A stretch of 64,000 nt of DNA, from contig CM119372.1 in NCBI GenBank assembly GCA_051294905.1, forward strand, positions 15,440,001 through 15,504,000. The letters are read 5' to 3'. Positions within the stretch are counted from its first letter, which is position 1; each line of letters opens with the position of its first letter. This document shows positions 7,576 to 63,062 of the stretch, in pieces. Source of the DNA: Botryllus schlosseri (lineage: Eukaryota). The notes under the pieces were generated by a model. It ran no database searches and was not told the origin of the DNA. It saw nothing but the letters and a program-made list of their open reading frames with translations. Position numbers and translations under genes: made by a program.

Positions 7576-7609
7576 AGGCGCCTGGTTGCCGTGGTTGGGC
7601 CCAGGGGCC

Positions 7610-7938: not shown

Positions 7939-8299
7939 CATATAAATTCAGGGTCTCTATTCGCGGAGAGTATATAATTTTCATCATGTTTAACGCGGAA
8001 TGAGTATGGCTGAGTATAAGATTCCTAAGTTGAAACACTCGAAACATTCCAGATAGGCAAATTTTTACAAAAAATTCCAACGAAACATTACAAAAAATTC
8101 CAACGAAACAAAGTCAGAAACAACGGATGAAGATTTTCTGACGCAGGCGGTATAATGACACAATGGCCTGACCATTTATATCCACTTTTTTCGTAACGGC
8201 TAGAACAACCCACTGCTGTAACATTGCTCCCAGTCTTCCCCTATATTTTGAATTTCAATTTTCACGGGGACATATATCAGAATTTTCATTCGAATTTTG

Positions 8300-9273
8300 A
8301 TATTTCAATGTTAAAAGTAGTGTAGGTAACAAAATTTATATTTTGATTTCCAGTAGAAAAAAGTTGGATTTGGAATTATGATTTTTGCGCGGACTGCATG
8401 CTAAATAAGGTCAAAAACATGCTAAATAAGGTCAGTCACATGCAAAATAAGGTCAGTCGCGACATGCAAAATAAGGTCAGTCACATGCAAAATAAGGTCA
8501 GTCGCGACATGCAAAATAAGGTCAGTCACATGCAAAATAAGGTCAGTCGCGACATGCAAAATAAGGTCAGTCACATGCAAAATAAGGTCAGTCGCGACAT
8601 GCAAAATAAGGTCAGTCACATGCAAAATAAGGTCAGTCGCGACATGCAAAATAAGGTCAGTCACATGCAAAATAAGGTCAATGGCATGCGAAATAGGGTC
8701 AGCCGCCACATGCAGATTGCAGAATAAGGTCAGTGGCATAAGAAAAATGTAGGATTTGATGTAAATATTTCGATTTATACGCGGACTGTTAATATTCTAC
8801 ATGCGACTCACCCCGTAATCGTAAGAATCGTCTGATTACATTTTGTTGAAACACCTTCAGATTTAGGATATAGATGGGGAATGTCAATCATGAAATTACT
8901 ATATAGGAATAATATTTTGAATTTATTTTTCATAAAAAAAAGAATTGGATTTGTAATTGAAGTGTGGATTTGGATTTATGCGCGGACTGATATTAATATT
9001 CTACATGCGACTGACTTCGTAATCAAGATAATCATGATTATCTTTTGATTGAAACATCTCAGGATGTAGGATATAGATAAGGAATTTCAATGTTGAAAGT
9101 AGGCTGCTATACAGGAAAGATATTTTGAATTTATTTTTCATAAGAAAAAAGTTGGATTTGTAATTGAAGTATAGATTTGGATTTATGCGCGGACTGACCT
9201 TATTTTGCATGTCGCGACTGACCTTATTTTGCATGTGACTGACCTTATTTTGCATGTCATCGCACCAACCCTG
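8300..9273 (-). mobile_element. Minisatellite-bearing non-autonomous element, copy B (inverted relative to copy A)
   Basis: Ends ..GTCATCGCACCAACCCTG (9273). Array 8397-8735 shows regular 21+24 bp alternation, the AT-rich spacer is present twice (~8790-8990 and ~8990-9195), and a short inverted array lies at 9193-9260. The left boundary is approximate. Confidence 0.7.
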
Positions 9274-40391: not shown

Positions 40392-43300
40392 CTAATTCCC
40401 ACTCTTATAATGAAGCATAAGCCGCAGCTTATCCCCTTTTCCTTTGCCGACACTGAAAAACGAATCGCTTTGTTACGAACACGCCACGCAATTACCGACC
40501 ATCCAAACTCACGTGAGGTAATGACGGGTGCCCCTTAAAAGGTAAAGCTCTTTATTTATTTTGGCGGCAATATTTTGCTGCCTCAACTCGCCAGCCCATG
40601 AGCTGTCCACCGGGTAAAACCCATCCAGTTTGCAATACCCGTTGCTCACAGAGGAAGCCTTACTGCTATCGATTTTTGCGTGGAAACTGCAAAATAAAAC
40701 ATGGTGTAAAAACGCACTAGAGCTTGAGAATAATACTGACAATAAGTACGCCGCATTATCTTCTCTACGCAACTCGATGTACTGCAGCCCGGAAAAGACC
40801 TCCGCCCCTTGCTTCTTCATTTCAGACATGACTTGCTGCTGGAGAATCTTACACAGCTTCTTGCTATTCAGACACGCTTCTGCAAATGAGAGGGTTTTGA
40901 TTTGAAAGATGTGACTCGTGCGCGCCTTTCTAGTCATCGGCTGAACGCGGGTTAAGTACAGAGGTGGTCAGGTTTTGAAAGGTAGCTTTGCTATGAGCTT
41001 GCATCACTTTTGAGTGTGATAGTCGTAAAAAACGTCAGAAATGCTCCCTGTTTACCGGTTTCCATAAAATGTATACAAACTCTCAACTAAATCTACTTTC
41101 GCCTACTTACAATTTACTCGAGAAGTTTTCACATGTTCATTTTCTACTTCCTCTCGAAGACATGTCTTGGAAATTGCTAATACAACTTGTAATCGAGTAG
41201 AAATTTACCGCGTTACTTCTACCTCTACCTGAGGAGCAACGCTCGCTGTTTTGACCAACTCTGAGGCTTGATTCATTGTCTAGCGATGCTCCGCGATAAC
41301 AAGAATCTCGACAATGTCCGGCATAAATTATCCTTTGCCGGATCTACAGCTATAGCGGTGTATACCTAAAGCAGCGAAATAGGACTTGGTATCGTCGCTA
41401 ATCAACGAGGAATCCATGCCGTCGCTGTCATCCTCGTCGGACGAGTAAGTGTCGTCGCTAGTTTCGTCACTGCTGTAATTGATAATGCTTGAGGCCTGGG
41501 AACAGAGTTACTCAACGTCAGTGATACAAAATCCAAGCAATGCAGCGGCAGATTAGTTCAATAAGACAAAACGATATTTTATTTGAGACATGAGAAGAAA
41601 AAAAATCGTGCGATCACGGAAGACCCGCATCTTGTGAGTCGAGAAAACGTCATTCAGAAACAATACTGGCAATGTGAAAGCAGCTACAAAGCAAAATCAT
41701 TGAAGCACTGCAATTAAATGTATGGTAACATTTTGGTAGTACCCAGTTCCAGCCAGCGGCTTTCTGAAGAACATGACTGCTGGTTCTCACACTACCAACA
41801 TCAATTTGAGATCATATCATATTTAGAGCGCAGCGCCTATTTAAGGCAAAGGATACTAGCACCACTGATTTCTTAATTACCTTTGAACTAGCTGTTCCGT
41901 TCGTCAGACTCCTTGCAGTAAGTGCTGGAAACAGAAAATCGAACCGATTATGAAAGTTATCTAACATGGTAACGCGCGTAAGGACCGATACCTTGTTCCA
42001 AATGACTATGGTAATTACTAACATCGTGGTTCGTACTAACGACAGGCGGCTTCTCCGCAGAGTGCAGAAAAGATAGACGGGCTTCGTCGCTGAATACGGA
42101 AGCACGGTTCGGATAGCCTGCAAGAAAGGATGGCCGTGAAGAGAAAACATTTGGGTCAGGTTCTGAATCTTTAGCATCATAACAATGCGCAGTCACAACA
42201 AGGAAGCAAGTGATAATAAAAAATATGCAACGAACGGAGGAGCTGTTAACATACGTATAGAAGTATATACCAACAGAAAATTTTATGATTGCAAAAGGAC
42301 TCCTTCTATCGCAGTGGTTCTCAACCTTTTTTCAGACACGCCCCCCTTTATGATAGTGAAAAATTTCGCGCCTCCCTTATCGTCATATCACAAAATCCAA
42401 TCGCGATGCTAGCAACCCCAACCGATTTTTTGGTGGCATGGAAGGTTATGACTGTTGATGAAAGAATTAAAAAATATGATATTCGGTCTATATATAGATA
42501 AACACGCGTGAATTGGAGGTAAATTGCGCAGAGCACGAAATATTTTTCAGTTGACCGCTTCTTCGCGCCCCCTTCAGATGCTTTCACGCCCCCAAAGGGG
42601 GCACGCCCCCCAAGTTGAGAACCACTGTTCTATCGACATAAATCCGAACACCAGAGCAGAGTATCTAGTAATGACAAGCATTAAATTACCCGACAATCCG
42701 TGCTGAAGAGGAAATGGGTAAGGGTAGCCATCTGCCAAATGCGGTGTATTGATCCCTGAGATGTAACTAGACGTGCTCGCTAAAAAGAAATAATGGAAAA
42801 CACATAAGATTAAACGGCAGCCGTGAGGACAAAGTAACCGAAATTACCTCTACCGGTTGTGCTTGTCGGGGACGCCAGTGTAGCGGTTGCGCCCGAGACT
42901 GTCCCGTTAGTGACAGGTCTACTTTGGCCTTTATTACTGACGGGGGAAGAGAAGCCGGACGTCATGATATCCTCAATGACGACGACATTTCCAAGGCCGT
43001 TATGTCTTGCATGCACACTCTCCAATCCCATTTCGCCATCTAAAGCGTCGTACGGTAGCGTAACAAAACGATCGGCTTATATGGAGAAAATGACAGCAAT
43101 CAGTGTTTCTATGCGTGCCTACGGATTAAGCCCAGTGCTGCGGAGTCAGTACGATTTGCAAACGACTCTGATATTTTCAATATGCCAAGTTCAGCTCTTG
43201 ACTCCTAACCTTTTTTAAACATAACTCCGAGACTCGGACATTCTTACAGCTTCACTTTGAAAATCGTAAGTCGATAACTTGATAATTTGTTTCCGAGTCA

Positions 43301-46300
43301 CAAGACGTTTTGTAACTCGTAATTTTTCCGACACGTGCATTCATCTCGTTGCGCGACACTGCATAAAACTTCCACTTAGCAGTCAAGTTCAATCACTTGA
43401 TTTCAAGATATGCTTTCTATTTCGCCTAGCATCGTTTTTCATGACTAGAACGCAAAAAGTTAACAGCAAAAACATTTTAAATAAGGGGTGTCAAACTCAA
43501 TCGGCAACGGATTCAAACCTTCGTATAGTTCGCAGGCCAGACCAGTCAAATGATTCCAAAATGTTACCTCGATATCCATGCCCTTGTTTCTCACTTGAAT
43601 ACTCCATTGTCAAGCGTGCATACACAATAGTATATTTTACAGTATATAACGGATCATAGATGTTCGATTAATTATACCATAATTCGCAAACAATGGAATT
43701 GGCTAAAATACAATACAGTTAAAAAAAAGGCTAAAACAGTGGCTCTAAATATGATATAAGCTGGCATATTTCTATGCTCCGTTTGTTTTATTCGTAATCT
43801 GGCGCTGGTCCTGCATATGCGTTGTGAGGAATACAAGAGATTTAACGGTAAACACAGATAACACGACGATATTGTTGCGTCACAATAGCAAACTTCGTTA
43901 CAATGCAAAATTCGAGGATGATTTTAGGGGGTTCCAGGACGACGAGCAGAATAAAATTTATACTTTCGCTATCAGTAACGCGGTACCTTTCAATTTATAC
44001 CAATTATCAATTTTAGTGCTCGGCAAGCCCGCTAAAAAATACCGCAAAATAGCCTTTGGCCAAATAAAAAGTATGACGTAAATCAATTGCAGTAAGCCGT
44101 GAGATTTGCTAGTCAGCTAGTATCCACACCATTGTAGGACACTATGATATAACGAAGCAGTGGGGCGATGCCCTTTTTAGCATATTTCCCCCGTCTACGT
44201 AAGCCCGAAAAAGGTATCGTCACATTCGCATCAGATGCCATGGTATTTAGATCACGCGCGAGTTGGTTTTTGTCAAGTTTGTTATCAACAAACATTTAGA
44301 ACATGAAAATCACAATTGTGCCAAAGCGAATTTCACAACAATCGCATTCAAACGGCGATACATAATGTGCAAGAATATTTGCGACGAAATCCCGCGAAAC
44401 ATCCGACTTGGATAATTCGATTTCTCGGTGCATATGCATCAAAGCCAGGCCGTTTAGTCGATCTGATCTGATTGCACTCCGTCATTACATGATTGCTGAT
44501 CAGCATCACTTCCCAGAGCGCCACCAAGATGTATGTTTTCGCGACCGCAAAATGCAATGGTTTCGATAACGGAATTTAAAGCTTTGCAATTGGCAATGGC
44601 CTTCCTCTCCCTAGTTGTATCCATTCTTTTCACTATCGTACCCGTTTTGTGCGTTCTTTCGAAACCGTCTGCTCGCAGGAGAGCCATAGTGTGATATTCT
44701 TTTGTAGCGTGATGTCTGCAATTCTCACTGGCCTTCTTCCAGTTTTGCATTGGCTCAGTGACGAATTGTCTTAATTGCTGGCCGTTAACTGTATCAACGG
44801 CAAACAGCCGACAAAACACGCAGTATGCCCCTTCTTGAGACGGACTGTAGGCTAACCACTTGAACGCGTCGAGCCAACTTCTCTGAAATTTAAGCCGAAC
44901 GACTTTTTTTGCGTAGCGATATTCTTTCGGCGGAAACTCGAAATAACGATCTGGTCTCCAATGACCAGTTAAATAATTGAATTTGATTTGGTCCTCAACT
45001 TTATTACCACGCTTATAATATCCAATATCATATTCAAAATGCGAATGGATGAATTGTTGCGACGAGCATGGTCCTTCGGCCTGACTTGAATCGACTCGCC
45101 TGCGTCCAGATGAGGAATTGAATTCGGGTGTATCGGCCATTTGGCTGACATGTTGCTCAGTAATGTTCGGCGATGAGGACTTGAAAAATGATGTAATAGA
45201 TCTCTGTCCGGCCTTTCCGCTCTTCTTCATAATCGAAAAACGTCCCTAGCCTGATCTAAATCGATACCGTGCCTAGCCTCACTCGAAGAATAAAGAAGCC
45301 TTCACCCAATAACAGCGTGAATAAATAATACCTTCGCAAATTGTTTCTCACGCCGTGGTTATGCACTGACCTCACTCTTTCGAATATAATTATCCACTCG
45401 TCATACTAGATTATGCCCTACATAACGGGTAGCCAACCGGCATCATCAATAGCAGCATCGAAATTTGTTTGCTACTCGCATAAGATACATTGTGATTCGT
45501 GAGATCACCTGCTGCGTTGTGTCATGATTCGCGCGGGCTTTTTATCAAGATTCGCGCGCATGAGTCTCGCTGTCGGTAATTAGTAGTGCGAAAGACACAA
45601 GCGAACTGGCATACGACTGTGCATAATGGAGCTATATTTTAATATAACTGGCAAATGTTTATGTGTATACAGACGTTAACACAAGCGAGATTATTTTACC
45701 CTTGTTTTAACGGCATTTGTGCATATATTTAAAACGCAATAAAGCGGTTATAATTAAAAACATCCTAATTTTTAAAAAATATACCGTTTTGTTTTTCCCA
45801 CTGGCTACGCTTCTGGATATAGCATTGTATCATAGTGTCCTATATGGTGTGTGGACACAAGCAAATCTCACGGCTCAGTGACATTGTATACGTCACATTT
45901 TCCATTTGGCTAAAGGCAATTTGACAGTAATTTTTGACCGGCTTGCCGAGCGCGAAATTTGATAAAAAACGGGTATCAATCGGAAGCTACCGCGGTACTG
46001 ATTGCGAAAAAATAAATTTTATTCTGCTCGTGGCCCTGGAACCCCCAAAAATCAGCCTCGAATGTTACATTGTAACAGACTTTGGTATTGTGACACAACA
46101 ATGCCGTCTGGGCAGCTCAGGAGCAAGTGCGCACGAGAGTGAGGATGCTCCATCGGTTGCGCAGCAATGGCCAATACGCTTGCGGTTTGCGCTGCAACTC
46201 ACCTGCTCCCAGACGGCATGGTTGCGTCACAATACCAGATTCCGTTACAATGCAACACTCGAGGCTGATTTTGGGGGGTTCCAGATCCACGAACAGAATA

Positions 46301-49300
46301 AAATTTATATTTTCGCAATCAGTGCCAGGGTAGCTTTCGATTGATACCCGTTTTATCAAATTTCGCGCTCGGCAAGTCTATCAAAAATTACCGTCAAATT
46401 GCCTTTAGTCAAATAGAAAGTGTGACGTACACCAATTTCACTGAGCAGTGTCATTTGCTGGTGTCCAGTCCACAAAATATATGACACTATGATTGTATTA
46501 TTATATTCTCCTTTTCCTCCTGCATATAACGGTTTCACATTCGCGTTTTCTATTCTGTGAATAACGACTTTTTGGACCACTTTTCCATAAACTGTGAACT
46601 CGGTGTGTGCACTTTTTTGCCTTCTCGGAATAGGTGTCAATATCAGCTAATGGTGACTAGAGTGATACCATAACCAGGGTTGCCATCGACATGGACCCAA
46701 AATTAAGGACGGTCGAAAAATTTAACAAGCATGTTTCTAAGTCAAGTGTGAGGCGCTATGATCCCTTCTCTGCTGCATTATGCAAAATATGAACAGGGCA
46801 ACCGACTAGGATCAGATACAATGTTCGCTACGTTGTTTTTTCACTATGCTGTGATCCTTCAAAACTCACTCGTGCATTATCGACAGAAAAGGATGACAGC
46901 TGCTTCATGTCGAGACCGTTCTCTTGAATAGAGGAGAGAATGAAGTTTGTGATCTGTGCCGAGGTCTCGCCTACGCCTGGCATCAATCGCAAGACTGACT
47001 GACTGCACTGCGCCCTTTTTCACAACGCAATAAATTCTGCCTTCTCCGTCGCTTATTAGCTGCAGACTAATTAACAGCAGTTACCTGTTACAGCCGAAAC
47101 TGCTATACCACTCACTGCCCTAGCTATCTCACAACTTAGAACTCAAATCCTGTGGTGTGTACGCCTTTCATTTATGATGCTAAAATCTCGTCGCAAAAGG
47201 ATAATTTTAGAATATTATGCAACACAGATACCCGCGGAAAACGATCGAAGTTCTGTAGTTGTCGAAAATAAGACTAAATAACGACGCAAGTCGAAAGCAA
47301 GGACATTTCTTAGAAATAAGGACAGTCGAGTTTTATAAGACCTGGCCCTTGAAAATTAGGACAAATCTTAGAAATAAGGACGGTATTGCAGCCCTGACCG
47401 TAACGCTGCTATCGGGTGGTTATAATGTGGCCTGGACATACTCGGCATATAATGTCTTGAGACGTTATTCAATGAAAGCTAAAAATCTCAACAGTTTTTA
47501 GAAATGTGCAGGATAATACAACCATATTTCATACTAATCAGCATTGCTTCTTGGGTCAGATGAAATCCGGGGCAGCAGCCATATGTTTAACATCCGTTTT
47601 AGATTTTCAATGTGAGTGATTCATACAACGTAATATATACGTCTCCCGTTAGCTAAAGAGTGGAAAGGCTAATGAAAGCACCAGAATTCTAATGCTTTTG
47701 CACGAGTCACGGAGCAACTCAACAGAAAACAACACACATACTACAAATGTATTATTACGCTGTTTATGACACATACGCTCTCCCTCTGAGCTGATTACAA
47801 CTACAAGCATGCACTGCCTTCAATAAACCCTAGCTGTGGTAAGTTTTGCCAAATGTAGGTTCTCTAAACAGATAGATAGATATATCTGGTAATCTATGCA
47901 AGAAACTTATTAAATTGAGTAAATAGAAGCGATAATCAAAATTATTAGTCAGTATTCCAGGAATTTTGGCAGTTTTCTAGTTCATAGTTTGGCCACCATT
48001 GTCAAAAAGGTCACAAAGATTTGAATAATACTCACTAGCAGAATCTTCCCTAGCTTTAGATATCCTTTCTTCATCACGATCTACTGTTGCAGGAGGCGGA
48101 GTAGCCGAGAACCTATAGTCAAATCGCAAGTCACATCGCTGCCGAGCTGCAAAAACGTCGACATTCACAAACTTACTTCCAAACCTTTTCGGCTCTTAGC
48201 TTAGTTTTCGCAAAGTCCACGGCTGCTCTTTGCAGCACATAGCACACCTGAAAATCACACAGGAAGCGATTAGTAACGGGAAAACAATAATGATATGAGA
48301 TTGAGGTGAAATTGAAAGCAAAGTAGCCTACTAATTATGGGAAATCCTAGCCCTACATTATTATCGAGCCAAATGCACCAAACCTTGGAGGCTAATCTCC
48401 TGCTACTTTCATATTACTATGCAGGTCATTTTACAAATGAAGCATCTTCTATCATTTCGTTCCTTACAACATAATGCCATTTTGTCACATAAATTGTAGT
48501 TTGGCAGACCAGGCATAAGTCTAAATAAGAGTAACACTATCAACTGGGCCTGTACCCATAGCTGTATTATCCTCTTCCTTGCCTGCCCATATTATGATAA
48601 TTGTATGTGTAAGCTATTTCTCCTCGCATGTGCAATGTGGTATGTGCATGCTTTTCTAACATGTTTTTCCTTTTTTACTATATTTGCAGTCAGTTTCGTC
48701 GACTGAATTCATCAAGTCGTTTGGACTTTTTCCTATCAAACTGAAAAATTGTAAAACGTAGCAAGAAAAATGTCTATTTGTTTTGTTTGACTGGTTACCA
48801 AATGTGTTTCTATTTTTATTCATTCAACACATTCCGCTGCGCTTTTCGTGAGAGTTGGAGTCGATATCAACGGGCAATTAACCCATGTGCGAGAGGTGGG
48901 CCATCCAACAAGTATACCAAAAATATCCACCAACCTTTTCTCCGTGCGATAATTCACCCAGAAGACTAGTCACGTAACCGGACTGCGGCCTGTACTCTTT
49001 CAGCGAGAAGTAAATGTTGCTCTCGAAATCGCTCATCTGCTTGTGTTTTTGGATGAACCCAAACTTTTCTTTCAAATTATGATGGATATATCCTATCTCT
49101 GAACAGAAAAAAAGTGAATTGCTTCGCTGCCGGGATCTTCACTTCAAAGAGCGCCAACCGTAGTCAGGTTTTCGCGCTACTGGTTTCTTAACGATTGGGG
49201 TGATTTTGTTGATGGCGGGAGGAGCTTTTAGGAGTTTCGATGACCAGCTGAAATGAAAAAATAACGAATTGAAGACTTAAACTGTTTGCCTTGTTGAGGA

Positions 49301-52300
49301 AATAAGTCTACATACCCTGAAAGAGACGGCGCAGTCACAGCTTTACTGCCGGTAGCCAAGCTTGGAAATTCAACGCCAGCAGGAGGGGCCGTTGTTCTGA
49401 ACAAAATTCATTTTTACAAAAATGAACGGTCCAGCCGGAGGTGAAAGATTTAAAGCCAATTACTTGAACTGGAACGCATTTTGTCCATTGCAAACTCAAC
49501 TGCATGAGGAATGCATATACATTCTGAGCGTGGACGATAAAAGAATATGGAAAGTCCAACAAACACAGAAGCAAATCATGGCATGGAATTACGCTGCGTC
49601 GGATATGGGATTGTTGGTAGTCACACACACCCTTCGGCTCATTTTACTACTAACTCCAGACATTTTCAATACACCAACTCCGGTTACAATTCTTACTTTT
49701 TTCTTCACAGAACTCTGACTCTACCATTCCTGTAAACCTACTCGGAAAATTATATGTGAGTTACATTTTAGGTAATATTCTACTATGTGAATCAACCTTT
49801 TTTTCGAATTTAGCAGAAAAGGTGAGAATTTAGCAAAAATTAGGTTTGTGAAAATTCACATACATGAAAAGCTTCACTTCGTAGAAAAATTTGAAAACAA
49901 TTGGTTCGATTTTAAATCAGTTGGCATCGGAGCATTTTCATAAACTCCGACTCCAAAGAGTTTGTTTGTTACAAAATTTTTCTGAGTTCAAGTGTATTCA
50001 TAAAATTTCATCATTTCAAAACATCACAAGACTGCCATACAATGAAAGATAGGAAGCTGTCGAAACAACTTGGAGGTGGCAACTGACGGGACGCGAGATC
50101 GATATGTCAGGTATTGGCCCGGTAAATGGTAGAAATGGTAGAAATTGCTTGCATTTGAATGTGGACATGCTCCACGACTGTGGGATAGCCGGCGAGATAC
50201 TGTTTCACAAATCAGGTCCGGCATATTTGATGGAGCGATGATCTTTTTTGTCCACCTTATGATAGTTGGACGACGTGAACGCACGTGTGTCGTACTTATG
50301 CACTTTTGGTACCGAGGTAAAGAAGTCATTAAAGTTTTCATCCATCCGCATAAAATGTAATGAAACTCAAACTTCGACTCCACAGACCTGTCTTTTATGA
50401 CTAGGCCTACTTTTTCATTCTTAAACAATTTTGTAGTAAAAACTACTCAAGTCGTTTTAAGACATGTTTCCATCAGTGTTTATACCGAAATTGTCATTAC
50501 GTCATGGCGAAATACCCCCTTTAGCACGATCAGCTGTATGAGAATATATTTTTGAAAATGGCACCAATTTGCGACGGCATAATTATTTAGGGTTTGCACC
50601 CTGCAATTTCGACCAAATCCACTTTTTGAAACTACTTGATTTCTTTTCACACCTCCATTTTCTACTTTCACTGACGACGTCTGGATAGGCGCGTGTCAGT
50701 AGCTTACCAGCATGATGCTAATGTATAATGATAAAAATCTCAACTCACAGCATATCTTCTGCAGCAGCGTAGTCGGGAAAACCTTCTAACGGTGAGCTAC
50801 GGTCCTCTTCCATTCGTTCCACTTTCTGAGCTCTCCATTTGGATTTTGCGTTCGGGTTTGTGGACGGTAGCGCGTAGGCGGCGACCCTGAGAAAATCGAA
50901 AACTCAAACTCAGGGGGAGCAATTTGACCCGAGATCAGGTATATTCATAAACAAATAAACTTGTCCCGAATATCTACAGCTGACACTCGTTATAGGTAAT
51001 CATATATATCAGCAATAGTATCACCTAATATGACGTCGCACGCATGAAAATTCAAATAACCGAGGTGAAAAAATAGTTGAAGCTTAATATACTGTATTTC
51101 GATGATGCACAAACAATTAAGTTTCACAAATTTTGATAAAAGTCAACTCCAAGGCACACAAATGACAAAAACAATCATCACTCCTAAGGAAGCGAAATCT
51201 GTCAACGTCGTCTTCCACAGGAGTTCATGTAGTCTAAAAGGAGTAAATTGAGCTTACGCCATCGGTTGGCCTGCAGATGATTACCCCTCACTAATGTCAG
51301 CCGACAATATTCGGGTTTATGACATAAGTGACAACAATATATTATTCAAATCACTTGATCAATCTCCTTCAGAAATGCCACATACTTTCCACCAGTGTAA
51401 TGCCTAGTCGTATGGTCAGAGGTAGATATTGGCAACTAACAAAGCGAAAGCAACACAGATCAGAAAATGACATGGATAGCCATTACTTTCAGCCCAAAAT
51501 TCTGTGATCTTCTTATATCAAGTATTTTACAGAAATTCAAAATTTATACATTATATCCTCCATATAAATAGGTGAACAAAAATTTTGTGCACAGGGTTGT
51601 TGTTGACGTTACGATAGACCGAGTTACTGCATTGTTACACAAGAAACTTGCAAGCGGTTTGACTACCTTGGGCCAGGGATTCTCAACTGCCCAGCTTAAA
51701 CTGGCCGTATTTTACCAAAATCAGATACTATGTAACGGAGCCACAAAACATTGTTACCATGTATTTGTACTATTTGATTCACTGTATTTACCAGTCCTAT
51801 GCTGATGCTTAATTCATAGTTATGCATTAATGGATATCAATCGTAAGTTTGCAAACCCAGCTTCTTACCAGCGAGAATTTTACCTAACAACAATAATATT
51901 TGGTCAATGATTACAATATAAACCCGGAATACAATTGTTAATTTATTCTGAATGAGAGCTATGAGTCTGCATTCTGTTCATGAGTAATTTAAAATCTGGA
52001 GCTCCCTTTTGATTTTATCATTCCAATGACAGAGCTATAGGTTTCACATAAACAAGTAGATATTAAACAGGCAAGAGTTTTATGAGCAAACGAGTGTGAA
52101 GTATAATCAGGTATCAAAACATAACACAGTTTCAACTAGGGCATATATACAGAAACCAGAACACATCAAAGAATGAGTCATCCAAATAACAGAAGCATGC
52201 ACTGTGCAACACATAGGCCTATGTCAGTTGAACTAATGTCTTCAAGTAATAGAAAATCACCATTTTCAACAGAGAGACTATGCGATGAACAAGCTATACC

Positions 52301-55300
52301 AGTAACTCAATTATTTATGCAACAATACCATCCAGTACAGTACTTTAATAATTGGGTTCATAAAATTAAAGATGTTGACTGGTTGAGCTTTGCAAAAATA
52401 TGCAAAAATTCGATGGGCATTGCATGCAGAAAACCTAAGATGTCTTGAAAATTGTAAAGAGGTCGGATGTGAGCAGCTTGGCAAATACTTCTCTACTCTT
52501 CCCACGATGACCCGATGCACGAATCTGCACTTGGGGACATTGAATGACTATTCATAAATCGGGTTTCACTACTAGGAATCATATATTATAACAAAAGACA
52601 AACGTTAAAACTTTCTTTATAGCAATATCTCGTTCGAAATTTGTTGTCCTGGTGGCGAAAGGCACAAAACCGATCCGATCAAGTCAAAATCTGCCGTACC
52701 TGTCTCCATTATTAAACTCGTCCCTGAGGTCGCAGTAAGGCTCGAGTCCGCAGGCATCCAGATCGAAAAACACGTTCTCCTCAAACTTATTCGGGGCGTC
52801 GTCTCTCTCGATGAAGGAATAGCCTTTCTCGATACGCCTGGCCACAATTCCTGTCGGGATGAAAGGTAAGTTTCACGACGACGCAATTAATCCTACGCAG
52901 GACTGTGTACCCGTGATATTAATTCCTCCGGCCGGATCCGGCGTTGCTTTCGTAATTCTCTTTGCTTCGACTGACAAAAGAATAAGTGATATGGAGATAA
53001 AGTTTAGCGCAATAACGGGTAAGTTGCTTTTACCGTATTTTTGTCGGTATTGGAACGGTACGTTAATGATTTGATCGGCGCGTTTGCTCCTCCGGTCACT
53101 ATGATATTGTAGGATGTGGCTCTGAAGGAGAAGGAAACCGCTGTAACACCGGGTCAATTCAAGTTACGAGCCCGGCATTAAAATAAAAATGGAACAGGAT
53201 TTGCTACTTTGTCAAACTAATGAATGTGTCTTATATGGGATTCAGGTATTCAGTGACGAATTATGCCCACGACCACATGTACTATTTTGGAGTGCTCAAG
53301 TAGCTCTGGCCTACTTCCGCTACTTCTCAAGCGGTTACATTTCTAGACTACTCCCACTTCTACTAAACATTTATGTGGGATATGATATGGGATGTGTTTG
53401 CGTCACTTTTGTGATGGACATTGTCGTAACAACTGGAGGAAAATATTTGAACATCGGAACCTATTTGTGACGTTTCAAGTCGTTTGGTGTTACTCGCAAA
53501 GATGCATTTTTATAGCAGTATCTTCCGACTGCTAGTACGCAATACGCATCCCTTCGACCGAATTTCCTTTTACTTGCGGACCAACACTCACTACTTTGAG
53601 TTTGACCATCTCTGCTTGTACGCAAATAATCAGTTTGCTGGAATATGGAGGCAAATATGAAAGCACAACGAACAAATCCGTGGGCAACATGTAATGTGAC
53701 TTCCAATCTGCTACTACTCGAACGATCCAATTGATTCATCACCATTCACCAGTCATGGGTCAAAACTAATTCAACATATTGTTAAGTCTTTCCATTAGAG
53801 ACATGGCATGACGCTGACAATTAGCGTCAGACTGCATCTTCAAGCAGAGCTCATACATTGTGTTGCATCAGCAACATTATGACAGGCATCAACGTCGCAT
53901 GAGGATGAGAGTTTAATTTAACTACACCCACTATTACTTCTGAAAGATAAAATATTTGGTATTGATATTATTGACGTCATTTTCATGATGAAAATTGAAA
54001 GGAGAAACGCATATTAAATTGCCAGAATACCAATTAAAATTATCACACATATTATGACGGGTGAGTTTACACTATATATAGATAACTTCTATAACAACAC
54101 AACGGTTCAACCTCATGGCCGTGAAAGCTTTTTGGATGAACTCGGATGAAATTATTCTCGTCATCTCGGAGGTTATATAAAATATGATAAATACATGCTG
54201 TGCTCGATTGCAGAACATTTTCATGAAGATTTATCAAAGCGAAACAATCCAGCCTGTTCACAATCGGAGTTAGTGAAGGTATTCCCCATTTCTGCCGCTG
54301 AATTACACCAAGGACGTCAAAATAGTATAAGTTCAAGGCGTGCTTTCTATTAATAGTCATAGATAAATTCGCTACATTATATTTATTTACCGATCAGAAG
54401 CCCACATAATTAAGACAGAACGTATCACAACTCAATAGGTCATATTAGGTGACTTAATGCAAGAAGCTGGACTACACAATGAATGTAAACACTCGAGCAG
54501 TTGCATCAGTGATACAGCGACATATTAGCAGCATAAAAATATATGTACCTACAATGTACAAATACTTGATTAACACATGTTACAGAGGAAAGTAAACAGT
54601 ATTCAATCCAATGAGCAGATGTGCGAGTGGCATCAACACAGAGATCTGTATCAAACTAAAAGATTTGGTGAGACTAGTGCGCAAGTGCAACGTTAGAATT
54701 TTACGGAGCACACACGGTAATGTAAGAATGTAAGCCTCTCTCAGAAAACTGCAATACACCGAGTGAAAAATTGCGTTTGTAACAAAAAAAAACACATCAT
54801 CAGATATTGCGGTCCACACAGTTTTTGAGTATTTCAACGTTGAAATGGAAGAATTTGTCAATGCACTAAGGCAAATCTGCCAAAACATGTAAATTTCATA
54901 ACAGGAAACTTTAGCCTTGGGGCACAAGAAAGGGGAAATGCAGGTTTAAGCAAAGCTACAAAATTTGTGCTACTTCATGGTCGAGTTTCATCTATAAATC
55001 GCTAAAGAGACAATCCAATTGCTCACTTGCAAATCTGCCAAAACATGTAAATTTCTTAACAGGAAACTTTAGCCTTGGGGCACCAGAAAGGGGAAATGCA
55101 GGTTTAAGCAAAGCTACAAAATTTGTGCTACTTCATGGTCGAGTTTCATCTATAGCTCGCTAAAGAGACAATCCAATTGCTCACTTGCAAATCAATTTCG
55201 TTCTTGTAAACCGGGACCATGTCATCATCCATGCAGTCCGGGTGTTCGCACGGATAGTGCTGTTCTTTCTGATGGTCCAGAAGCGAATTCTTATCGCTGA

Positions 55301-58300
55301 CAACACAAACGTCATTGTCGAAATCCGCGCGAAAAAAAAAAAACGAAATAGAAAACGTGACTTACGCGTAAAACTGGTAGTTCTTCCGATCCTCGTTATC
55401 TTGATCGCAGATCCTACACGAGCAGTGATGCATCCGCAAGTGCCGGAGCAGCTCGTCATTATCCAGGTATCGATGGTTACAGAATCTAAAGATTAGAGAC
55501 TCAGTCAGTGCAGTACATTAGGAATTTCATCGATTCATCACGAGATTGCAATACAATGAAAGGAGCCCAAATGACTAGGTCTGCAGTTCCCATTGTGGGC
55601 GCTAGCTACAAATTGGGTGATTGGGGGAGTTGAAAGCAAATGTAGACGGTATGAACTATGGGAAACCGATTTGGTTGTACAAGGCGCATTAAATCGTAAA
55701 TCGTCATCGCATATATTCATTGTGACACCTTGCCTTGAGCCTTCTAACTAACCAACCAAACAATCAATCCAACAACGAATAGAGTAATTATTCGGTGATA
55801 CTTATTGAAGGCAAGTTATGAGAAGTCATTAAAACAAATGTACGAACAAAATACGATGATTTGGAAGAGAAATTACTAGGGCAAGTTTTTGCAACTTTTT
55901 TTTACAGCTTCCGGCAGCTTCCTAAATACTCGTAAGATATGTAGGATGCTGTTTTAAGCTGTTTGAAAGAATCTTATAGTGAAACTTTTTGCAACTTTTG
56001 TGCCTATTTTTCATGCAACTTTTTCGATTTTTCATGAAAGTATTTTCGATTTTGGTGAAATACACGGCCAAATTCGACTGAAACACTGTAAATCAGCACA
56101 GAAGTAACGCATTTACAGGTATTTCGGGAGCTGAGCTGGAAAATTGACCTTTTGTTTTTTTAGTCAACCGAGCAAAATGTGGTCAAAATGCAACTTCTGC
56201 AACTTTTTTCGAAAATAAATGAATAAATGCAACTTTCCACGGATTTAACTGCAACAAAAACTTGCCCTAGAAATTACCTTATACGATTGATCTCACTGAT
56301 TGTGTATGTCCTAGAATTCGTACAAAATGTGACTCCAACATGGCGTACGTAATGTATTCATCACAAATATTGCAGTTGAGAAATAGAAAAATACTAACTC
56401 ATTTGAGAACGAATTCACCACGGAATCGTCTGCCTTGCATATGATGGACATCTAAATCCGTACTGATCTGTCTAGGCTTGAGATATGTTCCAACTCGGTA
56501 ATAACAGATTAATGCACACAGCATAGCATACAGTGAACCTGTTCAGTGTTCATACAGGGAATGATTTCTATCCTACTATTATCAGGAAATCACTCACATC
56601 GTTAGAAGACCAGTAAGGTACATCACAACAAAACCTTATGGTAGCTGCTGAGAATTGGGTCACTGGAATCAATTAGTCATGGTCACTCTCAGCAGTCAGC
56701 AGTGATTATGGTTAGCTACCAAAGTTTAAGAATATTACAATAACACAAAGCCAATAATATAAACAACAATCAATTAGAGTGAATTGTACTGTATGTGTAC
56801 AATACAGTGTACACAAGTTTGATAGTCTTCAGTAACAGAAAATCATTCTTTCCAACACTGAAATCAACATAGTTTGAGTGAAGTCAGTCCTTTGGAAAAA
56901 GTATGGTGAGTGAAACAGTAGGCTCGTTGTACTTGCAAAAAAGAATTTATGGTTTTAGATTTGAATCTTAAATAGGATCTTGAAGTGTTCAATCAGCTCA
57001 TCTCCCAATTAGGAGCACCCTACCCAGCAGGATGGAAGGGCAGATCATAAATCATTTCAAGTGTGGAAATCTGATAGATTGAGCTTTCATAAGTATCTAA
57101 TACTAAAGGCATGTATTCAGATAGCGTAGTATCCCTGGATTGAATACAAAATACAGCATACTCGCATAGCGGGTGTCCGCCAGGGGCCAGACCCGCGCTA
57201 TCTCCATTTTCAATATGCTTCTCTAATTCTTTGGCAGTAAATATTTTTCGTTCTTCCGTGAAGATCTAAAACGTTAGAGCTGAAACGTTTTCGACGAACA
57301 CACCATCGCAATAAGCAAATACCTTGCATTGCTGCACGCATATGTCACAATAGAAGAGCTGATGCTTTGACCGAGCGTGGGCTTTCAAATCATCAAATTC
57401 CTTAAACGATGTTTTAGGACACTTGGGACAGACATGACGCATTAAGGCTCTGCAAAATAAAATTACGTTAATATTGAGTTAAAACTCATAAAAATCTTCT
57501 CGGATGGTTACTTCTTCTGGTCTTGTATGGATTGTGTTTCGAAGGCAATGCCGTATTCATCATCTTTTATGTATCTGTTTATATCGTGTTCATCTATAGG
57601 TAGTAGCTTCCTCGAAAATACAACCTGAAAACAAAGCGCTAATTTTGATTGTTGGTAACTATTGTATCAGTCAACATTTGGTTTGGGTACGAACTCACAA
57701 GGTTAGGTAAACAGCTAAGTCAATTCGCTTACTTCTAAATCAATGACCAGTTATTTACATTGCTGAATGAAATACAGCACTCGGTTGCACCATACGCATG
57801 ACGCAATCGCTTGTGGGCGTGCCTGGAATTCCCCTTAGGTTACTACCGTAAAAATACCATGGTAAATGAATATTAATGTATAGACTGAATATTATTGATA
57901 AATACAAGTACCCCTGGTGAACAAGTACGATGCAAAAGATACTCACTGCAGGCAATGGTGGTGATATGCTATCATATCGATTAAAAAGAACTAGCCTACC
58001 AGTATGCAATTTCCGTTTCCCTTACACTTGAATGATAAGAACAACAATTCACAGGAGGGAGGCACATAAGAAACAAGTCTGTTCAAATAAGTAAAGAGAT
58101 AAAACGTTAAACAGTGCTCCTGTAAAATTCCACAACAATTCAAGCCAGGAGCATACTGTTTGTTCATTTAGAAAATGGGTTGGGATTTCAAAAAGTACAC
58201 CTGACATATTTACAAAATTATGCAACAGTAGCTACACTGCTGAAGAAGCTTTTTAGGTCACAAAACCATAAAACTATACCTGTCCAGCAAGACACCTAGT

Positions 58301-61300
58301 CCTTTCTGAGATCATAAATGATGAAAGGCATAACTCATGAGAATAGTTATACCAATACATATAGAGCTGTCTGGTAAGAGCAATGGGATGAGATATGGCC
58401 ATAGCTAAAGCCTACCAATGTGGAAATAATATACAGGTATCTTATGGTTATGTTTCATAAGCTATATACGTGTGCACTGTGCAGTTACCAGTCATCCATA
58501 CAAACATTATAAATGACTTAGTCAAATATTTCATATCAGGCAATAAATGAAATACTTTGGAAGCAAAATCTGTCAGCAGAAAACACCTAAAGGTAGGCCT
58601 ACCTAATTAGTGTTATTGTTGATGATACCAACTACCAATGCGGAGCTGAATAAGACTAATTACTTACCATATCTAGAGTTTGTCGGCATACCGGGCAATT
58701 CTTGTCTTTACATAGTACTCTTAGTTTGGTGCTACATCTGTAAAATAACATAATTTCATGAAATCCCTTATAAAATATGGTAATTTATCATAATAAAGCA
58801 AGAAAACAATGAGAACTCTGGAAAGAGTATGACTGCGCTGCAACAATCAAGACAGCTTACTTGAAACAGATGGGATGGCGACATTTTCCAATCGCATACG
58901 TCTCTATAGGATCCGAACAAACCGCACAAGGGTCGTCTTCTGAAAGAAGTATAATTTTTGTTTAGAATCGTCAATTGTCAATATTCATAGCAGATTGGTT
59001 AAACAACGCAATTTCAAGGAAGCACCTGAACAACAGTTCAATCGAGTTTCATTTCAATCGCTAATGAATGATCATTTCAACTTCCAAGTTGAAAAACGAG
59101 TATATGCTACTGACACAACACACAAGATATTGTAAACAATGGTAAAAATATACCCCCCACTGACTAAAATTTGTAACTGCAAAACGTTTTTGACATATCG
59201 ATTTTGACAAGTTTTTATCAAAGCTTTTCATTCGGATTTTATACATGATTTTGCCTATTTTAGGCGATTATTTCTGTACTGTCCCACTGCACGTCTCATT
59301 TAGAACTATCCTTTAATGTTCATCGTCCTTATTGTGGCCTGCGAATTTATATACCTCGCAAAGTCATTTTAGAGATCTTCCCACCCAATCGTGATGTGTT
59401 TTGAAATGATCAATAATCAAGTTACGGTACCGTAATTATTGTATAATGCATAGACAAAATAAGGAACATAGCTGGTAAATACATACGCTTCACTATTGTA
59501 ACCCGAGTAAAATTTTGTAATCACATCAAAAAGAGTATTAAGGCTGGCAAGACTGCATCAATGGTTTTGTTTAGGACCAAGTGTAACAGTATTTACCGGC
59601 GTTCATATTGACAGATAAACTAATACTAGAGTCTATCAGATAGCCTGCCAGAGCTGTCTTGATATTAATAGTGTAGGCACCTATTTTCTGAAAATTTAAA
59701 ATCCAAGCGATGAAATGTCATGTGCATCATGTCATAATAATATGTTTGCAGACTACAATTAGGCAAAAGCCTACTGACACGTAACAGTAAGTCAAGATAA
59801 GAAGCTACATTTTTAAGCAAATTTATACAGCGATACTGATACTGAAATGTGATTACTGACTGGTTTTGACTAGCTAGATTTCAAAAACATGGCAAGATTT
59901 GGTTCATGGGCATGGATAACATGTATAGTACAAGAGACAAAATTCGATAATATGTCTATCGGTAAATGAAAAAGTAGCTGGGATTTACCCAAAATGCTTG
60001 CTGAATAAGGTGATGAAGAATTAAAGTTCAGCTCACGGTTGGCTCAAATAATTATGAAGTTTAGCGATAACACTTCAGTGAAATAGAAGATGGCATCTTC
60101 TATCTTAGCCGATGCATCTCTCTGGATACTGTGGATAGTCTACTTAACTGTGTAAATAGGTGGGACTACTCTCCCATATGCGCCTAAGAGCACATAATAT
60201 ATACCGGTATACGATTTGCAATTTATTTAGCAGTAACTAGGCTACGGTACTATATACAAAACCTCACAGGAAAACACCAGGCTGAAAACAAACAAGAGAT
60301 AAACTTACTTGCACTCTCTAAATTTATAGCGGACTTCTTATCGGAACCAATGCGTCTTACAGCAAGATCTGATTTACCAGACTTTGCCCGCGCCACATGA
60401 TTTTCAATCAGATAGACTGCATCCCCGTCAACCATAAACGACTCCGGATGCCGCTTAATAAATTTTTCAAGTCCACCAATTTGCTGAAAAGAATGAGCAT
60501 GCCAACGATTAGTAGTCTACCTGAGTGATTCGATTCTGAATAATGTCTTAGGCTTCGAGTCGAGTATCCGAGTAGCATATCAATCATTTTGACGCCATAA
60601 GTGTATAAAAGACGTGGACAATTCAAATACGCACCTTTTATGCTACGTCACAGAATATAATGGCGGTTCTACATCACATTTATGATCAGCTAGTATATTT
60701 TCAACTATGTCTATTTCATTGCATTTTATGACAATACCATGGGTTCATCATGACTTCATATAGATTTGTCACTTCGATCAAAATGCGTATAGCTTTGTAG
60801 GCTACTGCATATGTTGTTAAATAGTATATTCATATTGAAATGAACCCGAATTCGAATATACTATTTATTCGAATATACTATTTAATTGTATATTGAAGTT
60901 CTGTACCTCCAAGAAGCATATGTTGTATGCTGCAATACGGGCAATCGAGGCTTCAGGGCTGCCACAGTAGAAAATACTTTCGAAATTATAATATTCGTTG
61001 ACAAATTTCACTACTCAGTAACGGAATAAATTATCTTTAACTTCTTGACTCAAATCATTAGAATTAATAGTCGAGTTGATTCGAATACTCAAATCATTGA
61101 GTCCCGTCCTACACATGACCACTCAAATACAAAGGTCGGTCACTGAAAATGCAAGGTTCAAGATATCTTTCACGACCTACCCTACAATCTACATTGAAAT
61201 TGAAGTCTTGACATCACAAAAGACATATCTATATAGATCTATTTAGGGAGAATCCAATAGTTTCATACCGATTCCAACTCAGAGAATACGAAGTCGCTGC

Positions 61301-62015
61301 TAATCAAAAAAACTGAAATGTATAGCCTTAGAAAATTATCGTCATGTCATTAACCCAATCAGGTAATTATAATGTCAATAGGCTGATATCGTTCATCCCA
61401 AAATTGAAACTGTAATCCATTACCGCTATGTAACATATTTACGATGTCGTAACATCTGTTGCGTAAACAGTTATTGGATTGCGTATGAACACTTCACAGG
61501 CCTCATTTTCTAGCAAACAACCAGGCGCAATAGGTCTATCACTCTATTATGAAAGTCTACGTGTAACCATGACATGAGAATGACTGACTGATGAAATATC
61601 GTACCAATAGCATATTATAAAGTAAGGCGGAATGAGTCCACAAGTGCATCAGTTACATTTTACATCACTTAGGTATTACAACAAATGTAATCATTAATGG
61701 AAAAGGACAATTAAATAATGCGAATACATTCATGGTGCCAAGACAATTTAAAAATCACTGACTCATGTAATACCATATTGCAACTACGACGAAAAGTAGC
61801 ATTCAGGTTGGTGTGTTATTGTTCATGATGTATAATAAATTATAAGCAAAGTCAATTATTATCAGTCTTACTTTAACATGCTTTCTTTCTTGCAGGGTGA
61901 GCTCGGACAGATGACCGATCAATGAGCTCATAGACAGGTGTCCCCCTTTGTTCCTAAGTATCCCAGTGAAATATTCTACGACGGCTATATCCATTCCCGA
62001 CATTACGATAACCAT
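40392..62015 (-). CDS. ZNF598: ZNF598/Hel2-like RING-C2H2 E3 ligase fused to an N-terminal Egalitarian-type winged helix and two cold-shock/OB-like domains (924-aa manual model; orthologue versus paralogue unresolved)
   Basis: 24 GT-AG exons in transcript order: 62015-61872, 60483-60309, 58939-58861, 58737-58668, 57624-57512, 57449-57323, 57265-57162, 55485-55366, 55296-55185, 53121-53034, 52970-52911, 52850-52700, 50886-50749, 49247-49159, 49098-48935, 48247-48177, 48112-48036, 43075-42848, 42117-41992, 41924-41881, 41495-41366, 40879-40750, 40686-40513, 40452-40392. Total 2775 nt, open to TAG. The segments CAVCSDPIETYAIGKCRHPICFKCSTKLRVLCKDKNCPVCR, IFTEERK..GHPLCEFCNHRYLDNDELLRHLR and EIDLQSH are clearly ZNF598-like. 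Confidence 0.8.
40959..41263. mobile_element. MITE with CAGAGGTGGTCA / TGACCAACTCTG ends
   Basis: Imperfect TIRs and internal CTACTT/GAGTAG motifs. Partial relatives at ~19840-19938 and ~35460-35551. No clear TSD. Confidence 0.55.
42312..42627 (+). mobile_element. hAT MITE, ~300-bp family
   Basis: CAGTGGTTCTCAAC...GTTGAGAACCACTG with a perfect TSD TTCTATCG. Confidence 0.92.
43870..44146 (+). mobile_element. Right half of a diverged copy of the palindromic MITE at 45831-46491
   Basis: Aligns with ~46215-46491 and ends GGACACTATG. Confidence 0.7.
44454..45230 (-). pseudogene. hAT Tip100/Zaphod-type transposase, 5' part only (TTF zinc finger plus start of the DUF4371-like region)
   Basis: 258-aa ORF with QRSITSFF, KFQRSWLDAFKWLAYSPSQEGAYCVFCRLF, NWKKASENCRHH..YH and IETIAFCGRENIHL. 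It breaks off before the catalytic core. A TIR-like CTGGCTACGCTTCTG lies upstream at 45801-45815. Confidence 0.88.
45831..46491. mobile_element. Palindromic MITE with ~280-bp TIRs, P-superfamily-like
   Basis: Ends CATAGTGTC / GACACTATG. The arms 45831-~46112 and ~46207-46491 are inverted copies, flanked by the 7-bp direct repeat ATTGTAT. Confidence 0.8.
46675..47396. mobile_element. Non-autonomous hAT element (Blackjack-like)
   Basis: CAGGGTTGC...GCAGCCCTG, TSD ACCATAAC/ACCGTAAC, and subterminal AATAAGGAC repeats. Confidence 0.8.
54871..55193. repeat. Recent 158-bp tandem duplication overlapping a splice donor
   Basis: Two near-identical units start at 54871 and 55029, bounded by GCAAATC microhomology (54871, 55029, 55187). 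Confidence 0.92.
55877..56269. mobile_element. hAT MITE
   Basis: TIRs TAGGGCAAGTTTTTG / CAAAAACTTGCCCTA, perfect TSD GAAATTAC, and subterminal GCAACTTT repeats. Confidence 0.92.
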
Positions 62016-63062
62016 AAAGTTCGCTAGTTAACTGCTGCAGTTCGTAGAGCGGTAAATTTGCGAAAGATGATACCATTCACATTTGAGATTAGATTCGCCA
62101 AATTAATTTTACACGTGGCACGAGGTTGGCGTACTACGTTTCGTTAAGTATATAGTTATATGAAAGCACGGAACTAAATTCGGGTTGGAGAACTCATCTA
62201 GGAATATCGAATATAGCTTGAAACGCATCGCCGGAAGCAATATTTTCGTATCTGACCATAAATCACAGATAACAACACCACGAACTGGCTTGGCGAGTTC
62301 ACGTTTCGCTGTCTTTTGTTTTCTTCGACCGCGCTCAACCGGATACTTTCCCTCACAGGGGACTCCCCGGTAGCGACACGAGTATCGACTAAACGAGTCC
62401 CTCCCTCGCGAAAAGCATACATTTTCCAGATGAGCATGACCGGTGACCGCGATAGCTTTCTCCGGATAAGCATCATGTACATGTCAGTGTAGCATATTAG
62501 CCGTATAAACTGCCATACACCGTTTGATGAGTTTCGAAACATATGATCTCATAGTTACATAGTATTCGGATATCATAATCATCATAATTATAAACATATT
62601 CCCCAGCAAAATACGATGCACAAAGCAAAACACAATATGATGTATTGAGCAGATAGGAGGATGTTGAGACGACTAAGTATTCTGTTTATTAATCAAACAT
62701 CCCCATCGGTCTACTAATAATACTACTGTCAAGTGTTAATGTATGACAGGGGTTCCCAACATAGGGGCCGCGTCCCCAACAGGGTCGTTTGCCTATTCCC
62801 TGGGGGTCGTGGAAACGAAAACTAAGTACCAAGGACTAATACAAGAATGTACATTAACCGGTGCTCTCGTCGGCTCATTTCTGAGAATTTCAGTTCATTT
62901 TCAAATTTTAAAAAAGCGACCTTTGAGGAATGTGACGGGTCAAACAAGGTGATCAGTGCAGTCGAAGTCACTTTAAAGCGCCACCTACTTCAAGGTAAGA
63001 TTGGTCCTAGCCACCGGTATGAAGTTTGAAGTGTCGGGTGAATAGAGATTATAGGTACAAGC

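Follow-up and report, generated by a model that had tools for sequence, protein, structure and literature searches.

Do a winged helix, a ZNF598-like RING and zinc-finger block and two cold-shock-like repeats, whose coding pieces follow one another in DNA of the ascidian Botryllus schlosseri, belong to a single protein, and what would such a protein do? The stretch that raises this question, referred to here as the window, is 64,000 nt long (assembly GCA_051294905.1, CM119372.1:15,440,001-15,504,000), and the gene concerned occupies 40392..62015 on its minus strand. An earlier, sequence-only reading had proposed at this place a ZNF598-type ubiquitin ligase with additional RNA-binding-type domains. 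We show that this gene is intact and transcribed, and that it encodes a second and divergent RING E3 ubiquitin ligase of the ZNF598 type. The protein begins with a winged helix (residues ~8-75), which is followed by a RING with C2H2-type fingers (~107-373) and two OB modules (394-477 and 553-632); a long stretch of low complexity then leads to a C-terminal domain of ~120 residues that is conserved. We put at roughly one in two the probability that this protein is an RNA- or ribonucleoprotein (RNP)-tethered ZNF598-type RING E3, the function that its sequence suggests. The window is ~40% G+C and eukaryotic, and is part of contig C2 in the 495.5-Mb assembly; the Pfam scan of the gene took in 24 stop-to-stop pieces on the minus strand, 62015-40392.

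Gene structure and transcripts

Our model of the gene has 25 exons on the minus strand, with 966 codons and a stop, and 24 of its 24 introns have GT-AG ends in the window DNA. RNA evidence came from contig runs of two studies (X1 and X2) and from two raw-read RNA runs, all mapped to 42100-62099, so that the last exons (40392-42099) lie outside the mapped range. A contig of 2050 nt in X1 and one of 1560 nt in X2 both align in multiple pieces on the minus strand. Spliced contigs connect exons 2-18, and another X2 contig connects exons 17-20; the winged-helix exon 2, the ZNF598 block and both OB repeats are one minus-strand transcript from exon 2 onward. Each OB exon matches this locus alone in the assembly, and a processed DNA copy therefore cannot account for the spliced contigs. 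The exons and the evidence for their borders are as follows (all on the minus strand; designations of the type P0031 stand for predicted proteins of relatives).

61872..62015 (-): exon 1, start codon region and first half of the winged helix; WH_Egal positions 2-30, E 0.011; tblastn of P0007, P0029 and P0031
60309..60483 (-): exon 2, second half of the winged helix and linker; WH_Egal positions 36-68; inside the X1 contig
58861..58939 (-): exon 3, first half of the RING; RING_ZNF598 29.5 bits; contig arithmetic
58668..58737 (-): exon 4, second half of the RING; RING_ZNF598 39.3 bits; joint 57622>58666, cut +2
57512..57624 (-): exon 5, end of the ZNF598 RING domain; joints 57622>58666 and 57449>57512
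57323..57449 (-): exon 6, C2H2-type fingers; joints 57449>57512 and 57265>57323; aligns with the canonical copy
57162..57265 (-): exon 7, finger block; joint listed as 55483>57160, canonical pair 57162/55485
55366..55485 (-): exon 8, finger block with the most conserved ZNF598 stretch; the preceding intron is not in the canonical copy on C7
55185..55296 (-): exon 9, finger block; joints 55296>55366 and 53120>55184, canonical pair 55185/53121
53034..53121 (-): exon 10, last finger and linker; contig joints and alignment
52911..52970 (-): exon 11, linker into OB module 1; joints 52970>53034 and 52849>52910
52700..52850 (-): exon 12, OB module 1, strands 1-3; contig joints; module profile on residues 394-477, 58.3 bits
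50749..50886 (-): exon 13, OB module 1, strands 4-5, and linker; joints 50885>52699 and 49396>50749
49316..49396 (-): exon 14, linker; joint 49396>50749; lower border from contig distance and GT site
49159..49247 (-): exon 15, linker; borders by contig distances, GT/AG sites and frame, its own joints not being among those listed
48935..49098 (-): exon 16, OB module 2, strands 1-3; module profile on residues 553-632, 19.5 bits
48177..48247 (-): exon 17, OB module 2, strands 4-5; sole open-frame acceptor with a pyrimidine tract; joint 48110>48175, cut +2
48036..48112 (-): exon 18, start of the low-complexity region; joints 48110>48175 and 43039>48036 (the latter in X2 only)
42848..43039 (-): exon 19, low-complexity region; joints 43039>48036 and 42779>42848
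42690..42779 (-): exon 20, low-complexity region; joint 42779>42848 with 91 letters on the shorter side; donor chosen
41966..42117 (-): exon 21, candidate; a GT-AG exon whose length restores the phase
41366..41495 (-): exon 22, acidic, Ser/Asp-rich; splice sites and phase; a similar acidic stretch precedes the Styela C-terminal domain
40741..40879 (-): exon 23, first part of the C-terminal domain; tblastn to Styela, E 3e-18
40513..40686 (-): exon 24, C-terminal domain; the preceding 54-nt intron is in frame, and its retention is possible
40392..40452 (-): exon 25, C-terminal tail and stop; tail motif matches the protein ends of Styela, Clavelina and Phallusia

Among the 15 joints listed, 13 come from the ZNF598-like gene and two are repeat chimeras, so that 13 of the 24 model introns are seen as contig joints (12 in X1, 13 in X2). 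Eleven of the 13 gene joints have CT..AC ends, which correspond to GT..AG on the minus strand. The joints 55483>57160 (AT..AT) and 53120>55184 (TC..CA) lie 1-2 bases off the canonical GT-AG pairs 57162/55485 and 55185/53121, and we infer that they would be canonical if, in the individuals that supplied the RNA, exons 8 and 10 begin with G and not A. For exon 8, the frame and the adjacent residues are identical under either placement of the splice. At both of these bases (55485 and 53121) the two contig runs are shifted as if the RNA had G where the window has A, an apparent difference that could be a polymorphism or adenosine-to-inosine editing.

Elsewhere the contigs place the borders by other means. 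A 495-nt part of the contig (record positions 309-805) equals exons 3-7 exactly, which supports junctions 60309>58939 and 58861>58737; the first of these had been singled out in the sequence-only reading, together with 53034>52970>52850, which were observed directly in contigs. Introns 14-16, and with them the borders of exons 14-17, were set from contig distance-to-end figures, GT/AG sites and the reading frame. Exon 1 is supported by homology: in tblastn, the beginnings of the proteins from Clavelina, Ciona and Styela align at 62003/61994..61872, stop exactly at the predicted donor and resume in exon 2; the orthologues begin at the third ATG position, 61994.

At the 3' end, Styela homology backs the exons 41495-41366, 40879-40741, 40686-40513 and 40452-40392, the C-terminal 100 residues of the Styela protein (P0031, residues 883-982) aligning to 40877..40512 by tblastn (E 3e-18). 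The reading phase also agrees with the acidic exon 41495-41366 and with the tail exon that ends at 40392; our choice of exon 21 (42117-41966) is a guess among several that are compatible with the phase. The sequence-only reading had given the same start, 62015, and the same end, 40392, and the peptides that it quoted were all found on the minus strand where it had placed them. Its count of 24 exons and 924 residues was not reproduced, the 3' part of the present model being different; below 42690, 39 distinct GT-AG paths yield 924 residues, and because of this its tail cannot be singled out.

Several observations count against an intact gene transcribed as one unit. The joint between exons 1 and 2 (61872>60483) is not among the joints listed (26 further joints are outside that list), so the earlier claim that all blocks share one transcript holds by spliced contigs from exon 2 onward, with this joint missing from it. 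The X1 contig continues unspliced for 134 nt beyond the exon-2 acceptor (60484-60617) into intron 1, which could represent pre-mRNA or an alternative start that skips the winged helix. In the raw RNA runs (6% and 13% of each read), most of the bins that contain exons have zero depth, and reads fall only in those bins to which repeats give a very high depth in the contig runs, so that the gene may be expressed weakly or in a restricted way. These points and the candidate status of exon 21 are what can be said for an artefact of the gene model, with blocks from separate genes, or for a decaying gene or pseudogene. We consider such an explanation highly improbable. For exons 2-20 it is already contradicted by the contigs of the two studies; full-length proteins predicted in four other species are collinear with this one; and across all 25 exons the frame is unbroken and no zinc ligand is lost. 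Low-depth contigs of the same runs also occur within introns 1 and 2.

ZNF598 core and appended domains

The RING and zinc-finger block described in the sequence-only reading is complete. The RING_ZNF598 family (PF25447) matches the exon 3 and exon 4 pieces with 29.5 and 39.3 bits, above its cut-off of 27 (39.3 in the genome scan), and its scores in the orthologues are 80-91 bits. An alignment of five family and four canonical sequences has 28 invariant Cys/His columns in the RING and fingers, and the window protein retains each of them. Two loci in the genome carry a ZNF598-type RING, namely the window gene and C7:19141772-19142787, and the latter is the canonical ZNF598 of Botryllus schlosseri, the copy that the earlier reading had suggested looking for. 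Exons of the C7 copy are 40-69% identical to ray ZNF598 across aligned pieces. The window protein is collinear with the C7 copy over model residues 104-373, with 24-50% identity across aligned pieces (tblastn); the intron after the first RING half is common to both genes, and the exon 7/8 intron is missing in C7.

In contrast to ZNF598/Hel2, the window protein has the N-terminal winged helix and two OB modules, and lacks the PAH domain and the terminal finger. By Pfam, PAH_ZNF598 (PF23202) and the terminal ZNF598 finger (PF23208) are absent from the 3' open reading frame (ORF) pieces of the window, and both are absent from the relatives P0007, P0009, P0011, P0026, P0029 and P0031; they are present in the canonical P0052 and P0141 and in most of the 117 canonical matches listed from a follow-up search. 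Nor is the window gene a single-copy orthologue of ZNF598, since the canonical copy lies on C7 and the two fall into separate groups of a tree. One ZNF598 homologue was reported for almost all species scanned in an earlier study (PMC3701560). A maximum-likelihood tree built from the RING and finger region unites the five family members (100/100) and separates them from 11 canonical sequences that include the C7 copy; the tree is unrooted and has long branches, and it gives no age for the duplication.

According to a recent paper, the RING of ZNF598 passes ubiquitin to 40S proteins on collided ribosomes, and ZNF598 can recruit GIGYF2-4EHP (PMC13510032). The window gene may be read as a second collision sensor with unchanged chemistry, whose added domains raise its general affinity for mRNA or restrict it to a tissue (e.g. 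the germline), a case of subfunctionalisation. The whole RING and finger core with every zinc ligand is conserved with canonical ZNF598, and expression looks restricted or low, as this explanation would have it. We nevertheless find it unlikely, given that the core is far more diverged than that of the canonical copy (compare the identities of C7 to the ray protein and of the window gene to C7), that long branches separate the family from the 11 canonical rows of the tree, and that the C-terminal PAH domain and terminal finger are missing.

At the N-terminus, the Egalitarian-like winged helix noted from the sequence was recovered as a borderline Pfam match. WH_Egal (PF23713) is split over exons 1 and 2, in pieces 1.4 kb apart that together cover profile positions 2-68 of 69; the exon-2 piece (positions 36-68) scores 27.6 bits against a cut-off of 27 (27.7 in the genome scan), and the exon-1 piece (positions 2-30) scores 16.6 bits. 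In a study of Egalitarian (Egl), its winged-helix domains are described as LOTUS-like and occur in three copies before an exonuclease-like domain; ED1 and ED2 contact the minor grooves of double-stranded RNA, and ED1 also binds BicD (PMC13186709). The window protein, in contrast, has a single copy, placed N-terminal of an E3.

The two repeats that follow the fingers are cold-shock/S1-type OB modules of a divergent subfamily, and not cold-shock domains (CSDs) as defined by Pfam. By Smith-Waterman comparison the two repeats match each other (z 13.2), and repeat 1 matches the N-terminal modules of two single-exon genes on contigs C4 and C13, described below (z 6.3-8.1); in both comparisons 0 of 300 shuffles reach the score. 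Repeat 2 has no direct relation to the C4/C13 modules by the same method. A module profile built without the window rows scores 58.3 bits on residues 394-477 and 19.5 bits on residues 553-632 of the spliced protein. By hhalign, three modules of the C4/C13 type match nine true CSDs of the genome with a probability of 87%, and a set of 14 modules matches the true CSDs of the genome with 95.7% (E 1e-8, 50 columns). The 14-row profile, two of whose rows are window pieces, finds Unr (7zhh_A, 5.2e-7), CSDE1 (2yty_A, 4.8e-5; CSDE1 to 1.3e-3), YBX2 (1.9e-3) and CspA (5.9e-3) in the PDB. A five-row profile, again with two rows from window pieces, was searched against 1.84 billion representatives and gave 21 matches, of which 3 have a ZNF598 RING, 8 a winged helix without a RING, 5 a true CSD and 2 an S1 domain, with 3 others. 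The ESM Atlas returned only CSD clusters for a paralogous module (0.81-0.85, below the threshold of 0.9), and a word-based protein search with the repeat-2 ORF, which covered longer proteins only, gave no match.

Module 1 of the Phallusia orthologue was modeled by AlphaFold2 as five strands (predicted local distance difference test, pLDDT, 89.4; predicted template-modelling score, pTM, 0.80). Its neighbours by VIA are the CSD of Lin28B (Z 8.9, root-mean-square deviation 2.5, 75 aligned), CspA (Z 8.7, 68/70 residues) and the S1-like domain of DBC1 (Z 8.7, with 26% identity over 65 residues, the highest identity in the list). The top rows of a Foldseek search are all OB folds. The modules share with the CSDs of Unr/CSDE1, YB-1/YBX2, Lin28 and CspA the five-stranded OB barrel, aromatic residues at RNP1- and RNP2-like positions and the profile relation; they differ in a longer loop between strands 3 and 4, in the replacement of the RNP2 His and in a conserved Lys-Trp/Tyr-Arg-Ala motif in the last strand, and they are below the Pfam CSD threshold or undetected. 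At the positions that we take to define the RNP1 and RNP2 motifs, both repeats still have aromatic residues (Tyr-Ser-Phe-Ile and Phe-Gly-Phe-Ile; Val-Phe-Phe and Ile-Tyr-Phe).

A number of results weigh against these domain assignments. For the winged helix, the scores of two orthologues are above the cut-off (29.0 and 27.6 bits) and those of two are below it (23.7 and 23.2), and the Phallusia protein has no WH_Egal match at E <= 0.001. For the OB modules, the exon ORF of neither repeat matches any Pfam family, CSD (PF00313) included, at E <= 1; none of the 15 Pfam CSD matches in the genome falls within the window; and a profile of the true CSDs of the genome scores just 2.9 bits on the spliced protein. 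Against Pfam CSD the orthologue P0007 reaches 22.5 bits, short of the cut-off (27). A Foldseek search with the Phallusia module found nothing in the PDB at E <= 0.001 (best 2.3e-3), its first row being the DBC1 S1-like domain, a protein-binding OB by its entry title. The barrel itself was predicted for the module of an orthologue, to which the intron-split window repeats are tied by profile only. Finally, the canonical RNP2 His is replaced by Asp or Ser in the two repeats, so that binding of nucleic acid may be altered. Since Pfam CSD misses the repeats, the term cold-shock is valid at the level of fold and superfamily only; the two repeats of the sequence-only reading stand as OB modules by profile and predicted fold.

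Some of these results bear on a second alternative, in which the protein is a protein-directed E3, the winged helix and OB modules being protein adaptors and the RING ubiquitinating a bound partner without RNA guidance. LOTUS-like domains can bind proteins, as the Egalitarian paper cited above reports for ED1 and BicD; the DBC1 S1-like domain, from an entry titled for the DBC1/SIRT1 interaction, stands first in Foldseek and high in VIA; and the RNP2 His is lost. On the other hand, the nearest solved relatives by sequence are RNA-binding CSDs (Unr/CSDE1, YBX, CspA), the aromatic RNP1/RNP2-like residues are kept in both repeats, and ED1 and ED2 bind RNA as well. We regard this alternative as unlikely and favor tethering to RNA or RNPs.

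The C-terminal domain of ~120 residues and the tail motif (40395-40871, exons 23-25) are conserved in all family members. By tblastn, the C-terminal parts of the Clavelina and Phallusia proteins have no match in the window at E < 1, and their relation appears in a local MAFFT alignment only. A model of moderate quality (pLDDT 67.9, pTM 0.61) consists of two helices and a sheet, for which the best Foldseek match is an archaeal RuvB-like helicase domain (2.7e-3); VIA gives Z 7.0 for the same RuvB-like chain (a helicase N-terminal-type domain) and 5.3 for the VirB11 N-domain, and these matches are inconclusive. There is a weak SAM_PNT match (E 0.084) in the Pfam scan of window pieces, and a full-length family profile has no match among PDB sequences at E <= 0.01.

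The family in ascidians

The same architecture is found in Styela clava (LOC120342774), Clavelina lepadiformis (LOC143469989), Phallusia mammillata (CAB3263219.1) and Ciona intestinalis (LOC104266457); these species span three ascidian orders. The Styela protein P0031 is 54% identical to the window protein over residues 8-633, and the Clavelina, Phallusia and Ciona proteins are ~35% identical and collinear throughout. Domain order, C-terminal domain and tail motif are as in the window protein. The Clavelina and Phallusia proteins differ in having three OB modules, where those of Botryllus, Styela and Ciona have two, and the Ciona models are shorter (560 and 650 residues).

Among the 120 matches listed from the follow-up search, 117 are ZNF598 of canonical type and cover only 24-45% of the query. 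The family has so far been found only in ascidians, and the four species above are the only other carriers found, which supports the earlier description of the protein as lineage-specific. The relatives were predicted automatically, and in NCBI and UniProt they bear the names 'uncharacterized protein' or 'RING-type E3 ubiquitin transferase'. The literature search by family accessions and LOC names found no paper, the pairing of ZNF598 with Ciona found none on a paralogue, and the pairing of ZNF598 with a cold shock domain or winged helix found none on such a protein among the matches listed. The architecture thus sits unnoticed in sequence databases and is undescribed in the literature searched; the statement of the sequence-only reading that no protein of this architecture has been described agrees with the literature searched and has to be amended for the orthologues already predicted in NCBI and UniProt.

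Two other genes of the genome bear on the origin of the modules. Both are single-exon genes on the minus strand, and both encode the same divergent OB module followed by Egalitarian-type winged helices.

C4:11776318-11778498 (L006:2819-4999, -): single-exon gene, 727 residues
C13:3247429-3248730 (L007:3430-4731, -): single-exon gene, 434 residues

In these proteins Pfam detects the winged helices only, and their relatives come only from Logan transcript assemblies. An unnamed family of OB and winged-helix proteins looks like the source of the modules that were fused to ZNF598, and the finding points to such an undescribed gene family in these genomes.

Putative function and genomic surroundings

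How a tethered ligase of this kind might act can be outlined from its domains. The OB modules, by contacts with single-stranded RNA, and the winged helix, by contacts with structured RNA or a protein partner, would keep the protein attached to certain mRNAs or RNPs. There the core of RING and fingers would recruit an E2 ubiquitin-conjugating enzyme and ubiquitinate ribosomal proteins of the 40S subunit or adjacent proteins of the RNP. The outcome would be an RNA-addressed form of the ribosome marking or translational repression of the ZNF598 type. This outline is drawn from homology and from published papers, and the RNA targeting, rewired role in ribosome quality control and germline or defence function suggested in the sequence-only reading are likewise proposals.

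Pairing of a RING with RNA-binding modules is seen in MKRN1, Roquin and Not4, which are functional analogues only. These belong to unrelated RING families and carry CCCH, ROQ or RRM domains, not OB modules. For MKRN1, a part in the quality control of ribosomes that translate poly(A) is reported (PMC6805484, PMC4614863, PMC5970261). Among the matches listed from the literature on RNA-binding E3s, none pairs a cold-shock domain with a RING.

A stronger form of the proposal is a programmable ribosome-marking ligase, in which the OB modules and winged helix read features of an mRNA and the core ubiquitinates the 40S subunit without a collision. We hold this to be quite doubtful; if true, it would provide ascidians with mRNA-selective translational silencing or decay, for example of localized maternal mRNAs or of foreign RNA. 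ZNF598 is the entry point of ribosome-associated quality control. A conserved second copy that keeps the catalytic and finger core, and has modules of RNA-binding type in place of the canonical C-terminus, amounts to a natural experiment on how a ligase that ubiquitinates ribosomes can be given a new address. The Ciona orthologue provides an established laboratory model for asking whether RNA recognition, and not collisions, can direct ribosome marking of the ZNF598 type.

A few features of the surrounding DNA remain to be described. Four intronic stretches have very high summed contig depth (to 6488, X2), loose ends and chimeric joints, and they are dispersed, transcribed repeats. The features are as follows.

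60776-61442, 55440-56773, 49437-50770 and 42100-42766: transcribed repeats of high contig depth
44457-45245 (-): open frame of 263 residues within intron 18 (4996 nt); Pfam finds no family at E <= 1
28664-35213 (+): neighbouring gene for an oligosaccharyltransferase STT3 subunit; Pfam STT3 57.6 and 83.6 bits, STT3-PglB core 26.4
6704-9405: minisatellite-like arrays with long open frames on both strands

The 263-residue frame in intron 18 may resemble transposon-derived zinc-finger proteins. The arrays at 6704-9405 have a repeat unit of ~8-9 residues.

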